Below are positions 30,001 through 33,000 of a DNA stretch of 64,000 nucleotides, one piece after another (the first letter of the stretch is position 1; the number at the start of each line of letters is the position of its first letter). Source of the DNA: a plasmid. Position numbers: made by a program. Where the stretch lies: the NCBI RefSeq assembly GCF_058153355.1, contig NZ_JBLWLY010000002.1. One strand, 5' to 3'.

Positions 30001-33000
30001 TCATAATTTATTTCCTTAACATAATTAATTGATGATTTTGGTCAGCTGTAAAAAACGAGCTGTGTTACAAAAAACACAAGTCATGCGGAAAAATTTGAAC
30101 AGAGTGATGGAAAAACAAAAAATAGTCTTATATTAAAGTAATAACATTATTTTTCATATTCACGAAAAATAATGTAGTAAAAGAATGATGTTTTTTATCT
30201 ATTTGTTCGTATCGTTTTGTCTCTGTATTATGATGATTTGTGATTTTCCCTCATAGGGAAGCACTTTTCTACTAAAGATAAAATAACTTCATCTTAAATG
30301 CAAACAATTAACTATAGGTTAAAAATTTTATACTAATCTAGTTCTTTATTAATAATAAAAGTCTTTTTCTGAGAGCTTCTTTTTACTGTATGCTCCGGAT
30401 CAGCAGGAATTGAAGTTGAACGATAATGTGAGTAGGGAAAAAGCTCTTGACCATAGTGAACTCCATATCCATGATAGCCGGATATTTTTAGACCATCACT
30501 CAATGACTCATCGTTTTCAAGGTGTTTTTTTATCTGCTCTAGCAAAGATTCTTTTTCCTTAAAAAAAGGCAGAGAGTTAAGGATACAAGAAAGACTTTCA
30601 GCAGGGGCATTATTAAAATTTTTAGGAGCCACTTTATCAGCGGAGCCGCATGAAGTAAAACGGATATCTTTCACATTTAGAATGCCACAGTCTTTCATTC
30701 TTGAAATGATTGTTTGTACATCAATAAGTTCCGAACCAAGGCCTAATTGATGAGAACCAGGACTACCGTGCCCAAGAATATAAACCTTATTATACTCTTT
30801 AAAATCAGTATCGTTTACTGTTTTTATTTTCGCTTTTTTTACAGAAAAATAAGCAGCAGCATTCAATGCGTCATCATCATTATTTATTACTATTGGTTCA
30901 CTCTGTGGTAGCCATGATTCAGCCATTTTTAGAAAATCATTTTTACTTTTTTCATTTTTAAAAACATAATCATATAACATCTTGTTCTTAAATACTCTTG
31001 GTATTTGTTGTCCCATAATAGATAGAACATCATTGCTATCACAAAAACCTTTCTCTCCTAAAAAAACCAATGCTGCTTTTGGGTGAGTACATGATGAATT
31101 TTTTACCCTTTTTATTATATGTGCAAATGCAATATCTGATATGCTTTCATTCTTTTTATTGACTATTCTACAGTATGGTCTAACACCATCTAAATTCATA
31201 CCTACATGACTCCATATATTGTTTTATAAACATCATAGTAAAGGGTGTTATATTTTCATATAGTATGCAAGCTTCTTTGTATACTATGATTTAAAAAAAC
31301 GGAACAAAAATGCAATTATATTCTGGCATTGTTTAATGCGGTTTGTCTTTTTTATTCATTATTTCAATGAAAGAATTTCAACTACAAAGTTAATTGATCC
31401 TACCTACATAATATAGACACAGTACCTAAGGTACCGTGGAGTGAGGTAGCCTGAGTTTAACGGACACTCCTTCCTGAAATAGAATGGCATCAGAAGGAGC
31501 CAATAATGAGCAGAAAAACCCAACGTTACTCTACGGAGTTTAAAGCCGAAGCCGTCAAAACGGTTCCTGAAAATCAGCTTTCGCTCAGTGAAGGCGCTTC
31601 CCGATTATCTGTTCCTGAAGGCACTTTAGGACAATGGGTTACCGCCGCAAGAAAAGGGCTCAATACACCTGGCTCCCGCACAGTGGCTGGAAGTTATGCA
31701 ACTGCGTAAGGCTTTAAATGAAGCATGCCCAAACCTGACGGGTTAACGGCAGCAAAGAACCTTGCAGAGGCATTCGAGCATTATAACGAATGGCATCCGC
31801 ATAGTGCGCTGGATTATCGCTCGCCACGGGAATATCTGCGGCAGCGGGCCAATGATAACAGGTGTCTGGAAATATAGGGGCAAAGCCACCCACGAACGAT
31901 CCAGCATATAATCAAGAAATTAGATTTCATTTAACATAAGATAGATTATGTGCACCAAAAGGCGTTTCCTTAATTTCTGAATTTACAGGCTCTTTTGCTT
32001 TTGCTCTTTTGCTCTTTTGCTCTTTTGCTCTTTTGCTCTTTTGCTCTTTTGCTCTTTTGCTCTTTTGCTCTTTTGCTCTTTGCTATGCTGTGGATTTGGA
32101 AAGATAGAGTGCTGGCTGATTATTTAGGTATTTTCATCAGCATGTCCCTGATAGCACTGTTCCATCAGCGCTTTCAGGCGATAATAGTAGACCTTGGGTA
32201 GCCTCTGCCCATGTGTAACTTGATACCCCGAGAACAGCCACGATGATCTAAGAGGTTCTTATTTCTCCGGTCTCAGGGTCGGTAATGCCAACAGAAAGTT
32301 CACAGTAATCAACGAAGAGTTTTTTGAACCGCCCCGGAAATCCTGGAGACTAAACGCCCTGAGAAAGAGGTAAACAGAATGACTAAAAATACACGTTTTT
32401 CCCCCGAAGTCCGTCAACGGGCAGTTCGTATGGTTCTGGAAAGTCAGGGCGAATATGACTCACAATGGGCGGCAATTTTTAGCCATGAAAACGTAATCAA
32501 CTCGGTGAACCAATTCAAAAAATATACTTTATACCTGCGGAAGTGAGAAAACCAATATATTCAATACTTGCACTATTTTTAATAGTGCCAGATATATTGG
32601 TACTTTGCTCATAAAGAGATGTATCACCTTTTTTATTAGAAATGTAATTTCTGGAGCCTTCTATATAAATTTTTGCACTGGGGGTGACATAGTATCCAAT
32701 ATTCGCAGCAACAGAGCAGTAATTTTGGTTTTTTATTTCATCTTTAAAAATTGTCTCAGTCTGATAGTGTTTATCTGTATCAGATGAACGAACCCAACCA
32801 CTATATTTCAGTTCTGCTCCAAACTCAAAATTCTCATGGCGGTAATTAGCAGTTAATCCAATATAAGGTATTTTGAAGAGCTGTTTGTAACCTATTGTTC
32901 TTTCACCACTAGGATGTGCCCCTTTTTTATTCCTGTTCCCCCCGTTTTCACTATAAATATAACTCCCTCCCATTGCATTAAAACTGTAACGACTCTCTTG

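Follow-up and report, generated by a model that had tools for sequence, protein, structure and literature searches.

Downstream of icsP, the window analysed here carries a long run of an 8-bp unit at a site where other invasion plasmids hold a pair of imperfect copies. The window is a 64-kb stretch of DNA (64,000 nucleotides) and is part of a Shigella/EIEC invasion plasmid (pINV). Is this tract truly unstable, by which process did it expand, and does its length matter to the cell? The structure of the array and its surroundings (Table 1) are taken first, followed by the alleles at the same site in other plasmids, and then by the explanations that compete for these observations.

Table 1. Coordinates of the array and of the features around it in the window
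Feature	Position	Strand	Remarks
phoN2	29264-30004	-	
ospB, T3SS effector, first gene of ospB-phoN2	30333-31199	-	start ~790 bp from the array; array lies upstream
IS600 fragment, lineage-specific	31442-31723	+	five further copies in the window at 100% identity
IS2-like (IS3 family) transposase ORF2, 3' fragment including the element end	31724-31893	+	'IS2 ORF2' in pCP301; 'IS3 family transposase' in RefSeq
ORF within the IS2-like fragment	31725-31877		
Left unique flank	31894-31988		AT-rich (30.5% GC), non-coding, pINV-specific
Array, unit 1 (GCTCTTTT)	31989-31996		sequence parse
Array, unit 2 (GCTTTT)	31997-32002		6-bp variant, two bases short; sequence parse
Array, nine perfect GCTCTTTT units	32003-32074		sequence parse
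Array, last unit (GCTCTTT)	32075-32081		7 bp, one base short; sequence parse
Right unique flank	32082-32127		pINV-specific, non-IS
ISEc12-like (IS21-family) istB piece	32128-32196		89-94% identity to annotated ISEc12 istA/istB
ISEc12-like (IS21-family) istA piece	32197-32325		abuts the istB piece; 89-94% identity to annotated ISEc12 istA/istB
IS629 left-end fragment, truncated ORF1	32326 to ~32478	+	abuts the icsP 3' end; 'IS629 ORF1' in pCP301
icsP (sopA), omptin outer-membrane protease	32515-33462	-	array starts 434 bp beyond the stop codon

Structure and setting of the array

Sequence parsing and TRF place the tandem array of GCTCTTTT at positions 31989-32081, a length of 93 bp, and on the minus strand it reads as (AAAAGAGC)n. 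TRF reports a period of 8, 11.9 copies, 95% matches, 4% indels, and a score of 172, which is the top score among the tandem repeats of the window. The tract is composed of 12 segments, ten of them perfect units and two defective, and GCTATGCTG comes directly after the terminal GCTCTTT. The sequences TTCTGAATTTACAG and GCTATGCTGTGGATTTGG lie on its two flanks. The units stand head to tail with a start-to-start spacing of 8 throughout and no spacers, and the unbroken period-8 run covers 84 bp (31998-32081). Three consecutive units are matched seven times in the window and in none of 100 dinucleotide-preserving shuffles, so the array is far beyond chance. The first-pass annotation had described a perfect array of eleven units that ends at 32083. 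An 8-bp array does lie at that place, but its ten perfect and two defective units make it nearly perfect, and it ends at 32081.

Other tandem repeats occur in the window. A 45-bp unit occurs twice in tandem in the icsP-ospZ intergenic region (34759-34848; 86% match, TRF score 138), and we take it to resemble an IS3-family terminal repeat. TRF also detects a perfect tandem duplication of the 21-bp unit TGAGGTAGCCTGAGTTTAACG at 42434-42475; this unit is presumably a terminal inverted repeat of IS600, in which case two IS ends would adjoin here.

The array lies inside a 234-bp pINV-specific, non-IS segment (31894-32127), with IS600 and IS2 fragments to its left and fragments of ISEc12 and IS629 to its right. 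The GC content around it is 30-41%, compared with 44% for the window. The location downstream of icsP that was first described holds, and a location between IS fragments holds over several hundred base pairs, but the immediate flanks on both sides of the tract are not IS-derived. The boundaries of the IS629 fragment come from reading the sequence, and the right one is approximate; the 'IS629 ORF1' annotation of pCP301 overlaps the icsP 3' end, where the window has an ORF at 32379-32546. With megablast, the array-bearing segment has matches in 134 plasmids, all of them from Shigella/EIEC. The more sensitive blastn extends this list by no more than three E. coli plasmid records and a handful of chance matches of ~31 nt in Klebsiella and Salmonella plasmids, and a distant blastn search with the 157-bp ancestral segment returns nothing outside pINV. 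The proposal that the unique flanks are a diverged ISEc12 or another common element was dropped because the distant search finds the segment solely in pINV.

Several reference pINV records have their base 1 inside the ISEc12 fragment, ~60 bp from the site of the repeat. Examples are NC_004851.1, NC_002698.1, NC_007607.1, NC_007608.1, and NC_016833.1 (pCP301/pWR501/pSS_046-type; positions 17-173). As a result, the repeat site falls at the beginning of these records, where it bears no annotation, and icsP at the opposite end.

Alleles at the site and the window lineage

The comparison set consists of about 150 pINV sequences: 134 PLSDB plasmids spanning S. flexneri, S. sonnei, S. boydii, S. dysenteriae, and EIEC, 8 RefSeq complete EIEC genomes, and 20 further loci. 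Essentially all of them have a 17-bp proto-repeat, GCTCTTTTGCTCTCTTT, which is a pair of imperfect units. This allele was read directly in 23 of the 28 other loci with extracted alleles, the remaining five being a sibling of the window and indel alleles. Moreover, match spans imply the 17-bp length in almost all of the 134 PLSDB plasmids and in all 8 RefSeq EIEC genomes.

Small-indel alleles are rare at this site, and four were found. The S. boydii plasmid CP026844.1 has gained 13 bp by duplication of AGGCTCTTTTGCT, the S. boydii plasmid CP026876.1 is 19 bp longer, and NZ_CP026767.1 is 1 bp shorter. The fourth comes from outside the PLSDB, RefSeq EIEC, and 20-locus sets, in the metagenome contig QZLJ01005222.1, where the insertion of GCT (+3 bp) gives the 20-bp allele GCTCTTTTGCTGCTCTCTTT at contig positions 40-62. 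This is the sole metagenome contig with the locus; it ends 39 bp past the site and belongs to another lineage than the window. In both S. boydii plasmids, icsP is frameshifted after ~52-56 codons, and both records are unannotated. The frameshifts mean that the genes are genuine pseudogenes or that the assemblies are poor. The alleles of +13 and +19 bp are accordingly treated as uncertain and may be sequencing errors.

The expanded array is absent from all PLSDB plasmids and all RefSeq complete E. coli genomes. When the expanded version is used as the query, the two S. boydii plasmids rank top with no record above them, and a scan of genome contigs with a flank-plus-repeat pattern gives no match. 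The PhoN2 and OspB alleles of the window are common, and their look-ups lead only to 17-bp loci. A comparison of unit number across relatives had been proposed as a check on the locus; outside the window lineage it finds no array at all, and the site is fixed at 17 bp apart from the four indel alleles.

The IcsP allele of the window (G191, I265) differs from the common IcsP alleles. Its exact-sequence look-up leads to two draft assemblies, GCA_015332025.1 and GCA_043012465.1, and the corresponding protein records, EGO8354636.1 and HFG3511686.1, are labelled Escherichia coli. In addition, one Logan contig has the 326-aa allele and stops short of the array. Only the window and these two sibling drafts have the expanded array, and all three have in common a flank SNP, an IS600/IS2 junction, the array edge variants, and the IcsP allele. 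The SNP lies in the left flank, ~30 bp from the array, in the context 'caccaaAagg', with A in this lineage and G elsewhere. At the junction, the 282-bp IS600 fragment stands in place of 589 bp found in other pINVs; in pCP301, a 'putative resolvase' ORF of 154 codons and a portion of 'IS2 ORF2' are annotated within the replaced stretch. The junction occurs in no PLSDB record and in no RefSeq complete E. coli genome.

Both sibling drafts are short-read assemblies, with contigs of 10.8 and 16.9 kb; over 4,774 bp no difference separates the two, and they therefore count as one independent comparison. They have four internal perfect units where the window has nine, which gives 7 units (53 bp) compared with 12 (93 bp), and a period-8 run of 44 bp compared with 84 bp. 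In a 6,988-bp alignment, window and sibling differ by a 40-bp gap in the tract, exactly five units, and by one SNP, and by nothing else. This SNP, at 35094, lies in ospZ (35042-35734, plus strand), which codes for a full-length 230-aa NleE/OspZ protein, and makes residue 18 isoleucine in the window and asparagine in the siblings (I18N). The exact OspZ allele of the window has no record in a collection of 15 billion proteins, and that of the siblings leads to the same two assemblies only. With a 40-bp difference in the tract against a single SNP in 6,988 bp, the tract is by far the fastest-changing feature of the region, which is what a slippage-prone VNTR should look like.

An identical unit number in all relatives, which had been named as an argument against instability, is not what these plasmids have, since the window carries 12 units and its siblings 7. 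Instability of the array within the window lineage is supported, as far as short-read sibling drafts can be read. The description as a likely hypervariable slipped-strand locus is thus supported within one lineage, but other lineages have no array to vary.

Origin of the array and competing explanations

The array is best explained as a neutral VNTR that arose by slipped-strand mispairing in one rare EIEC-type pINV lineage, a reading to which we give a probability of about 0.85. The 17-bp proto-repeat, which can be written as GCTCTTTT-GCTCTCTTT, would already have been present and then have expanded in a single lineage. During replication, the nascent strand may re-anneal out of register by whole 8-bp units, so that units are gained or lost, and once several perfect units are present the tract would become self-perpetuatingly unstable. 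Tracts that have recently grown from within usually look like this one, with perfect units in the core and defects confined to the ends. This pattern, together with the 17-bp ancestor and the whole-unit difference between siblings, fits slipped-strand mispairing. The indel alleles elsewhere (+13, +19, +3, and -1) indicate that the site is indel-prone outside the lineage too. The minimum free energies of the two array strands are -1.5 and -1.7 kcal/mol, weaker than those of shuffled controls. As neither strand is structured, plain re-annealing out of register is probably a likelier route than hairpin-mediated slippage.

Slippage and a biological origin of the difference between 12 and 7 units are what we infer from these patterns. 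A competing explanation accepts the array as real and makes that difference technical, through short-read collapse in the siblings or a miscount in the window assembly; the instability of the locus would then be left with no evidence. The siblings are draft contigs whose identity to each other may mean one isolate or read set, although the two accessions were apparently deposited separately (one by a submitter and one as a TPA record, judging from the accession prefixes) and give the same count. The perfect 84-bp run of the window is longer than common k-mer sizes, and a de Bruijn assembler could in principle collapse a longer tract; however, the 93-bp tract is within the span of ordinary 150-250-nt reads, and the 44-bp periodic run of the siblings does not match the k-mer sizes at which common assemblers usually end. 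Moreover, window and siblings differ by a whole number of units, and the edge variants GCTTTT and terminal GCTCTTT are both kept. A technical origin of the difference is therefore considered unlikely.

The neutral part of the preferred reading, a VNTR that serves no purpose, is argued from the lack of features. The tract is non-coding DNA among degraded IS fragments and most likely has no role for the cell. No match at E ≤ 1 was obtained from Rfam over 31000-33000. No promoter-like or terminator-like site was found inside the array, and none resembling a promoter in or beside the tract. On the minus strand, the stretch that separates the icsP stop codon from the array gave no terminator-like site, so read-through from icsP could extend transcription into the array. 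Any regulatory role of the array is held to be highly improbable, and two forms of such a role can be weighed.

In the first form, the array would be a contingency (phase-variation) locus, in which changes in unit number switch a gene through its reading frame or the spacing of its promoter. As 8 is not divisible by 3, changes in unit number would shift frames. A 68-codon ORF with a TTG start (31995-32201) runs through the tract and is the only one to do so, but it comprises the repeat itself and an IS-fragment tail, and it is missing from the ~150 pINVs with the 17-bp allele. A real gene across the tract was dropped as a candidate for the same reason, as the ORF exists only through the repeat. 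The switch would also need a promoter-like site at the tract, where none was seen, and the nearest real genes are 434 bp (icsP 3' end) and ~790 bp (ospB start, with IS fragments between) away. The ~240 bp that precede the ospB start, as far as 31441, are conserved, with 99.6-99.7% identity; the array is not part of this stretch, and IS fragments lie between the two. A contingency locus is thus very unlikely here.

In the second form, the array would be a cis element of variable length, acting either as an A-rich (AAAAGAGC)n in a read-through 3' UTR of icsP or as a spacer of A-tract DNA. The former would possibly affect mRNA stability or Hfq binding, and the latter might change how H-NS silences, or how VirB spreads along, the DNA from icsP to the ospB-phoN2 operon. 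If true, it would provide heritable, reversible tuning of a virulence gene in this EIEC lineage. The open stretch from the icsP stop codon makes read-through possible, but the repeat is unstructured as RNA or as a DNA strand and belongs to no Rfam family. The low GC content of the region suits a spacer, since AT-rich pINV DNA is silenced by H-NS and VirB clamps slide from virS sites (PMC10770331, a paper that holds no ospB or ChIP data). However, virS sites, searched for as the inverted repeat ATTTCA-N(0-3)-TGAAAT, number only two in the window (9877-9891 and 34610-34624), with none within 2.5 kb of the array and the nearest more than 2.5 kb away. In addition, a period of 8 bp does not keep in phase with the turns of the helix, and a planar bend would therefore not be expected, and all other pINVs function without the array. 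A cis-acting role is considered very unlikely.

The two VirB-type inverted repeats are an observation in their own right. They are identical (ATTTCATACTGAAAT), whereas 0.03 would be expected by chance, and they sit in a duplicated stretch (~9723-10205 and ~34455-34982) that is 93-98% identical between its copies. The copy at 34610-34624 lies between icsP and ospZ, ~1.15 kb upstream of the former. The copy at 9877-9891 lies ~1.3 kb upstream of a 225-aa ORF (7910-8587, minus strand), which we take to be OspD1.

Comparison with known repeat systems

CRISPR arrays share only the presence of direct repeats with this locus. Their repeats of ~21-48 bp are separated by unique spacers about as long as the repeats, whereas the units here are 8 bp long and contiguous; the absence of spacers rules a CRISPR array out, as the first-pass annotation had concluded.

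Contingency loci: The contingency loci of Haemophilus, Neisseria, and Campylobacter undergo the same slipped-strand mispairing, and their unit is likewise not a multiple of three. Their tracts lie in a coding region or in the spacing of a promoter, and a gene is switched. In contrast, the pINV array lies in neither a gene nor a promoter, and it was rejected as a contingency locus on this positional ground.

Arrays of the same octamer: At least four perfect GCTCTTTT units occur in 15 unrelated species-representative genomes, and the octamer is therefore not special to pINV. These arrays have 4-13 perfect units and are present, for example, in Stutzerimonas stutzeri, Enterobacter sp. 10-1 (13 perfect units), and Pantoea ananatis. 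An apparently orthologous locus varies among three Stutzerimonas/Pseudomonas genomes, with 9, 5, and at least 10 units. As the flanks are unrelated, these arrays have no ancestry in common with the pINV locus, and they point to convergent expansion of a slippage-prone motif.

MLVA loci: The searchable texts, in which few subscription papers are covered, yielded no literature about this repeat, its locus, or the accessions of the siblings, and no MLVA scheme that includes the locus was found in them. O157-36 and O157-37 are VNTR loci on pO157. The VNTR loci used for MLVA in E. coli and Shigella have units of 6-9 bp that stand head to tail without spacers and are mostly intergenic, and they change by whole units between very close relatives, all of which is true of the array. 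They become less stable as perfect units accumulate, which would be a further likeness. The array qualifies as an ordinary bacterial VNTR of this type. It is an apparently undescribed octanucleotide VNTR on the pINV of one rare EIEC-type lineage, and its significance is little. Even so, a two-unit proto-repeat is fixed in essentially all of the ~150 plasmids, yet the threshold to runaway slippage was crossed once. The suggestion of a typing marker survives in a narrow form. Within this one rare lineage, PCR sizing of the array could separate very close isolates, such as those with one SNP in 7 kb. Unlike MLVA loci, the array is expanded in one rare lineage only and is monomorphic at 17 bp in other pINVs, which leaves it without general typing value as a Shigella or pINV marker.
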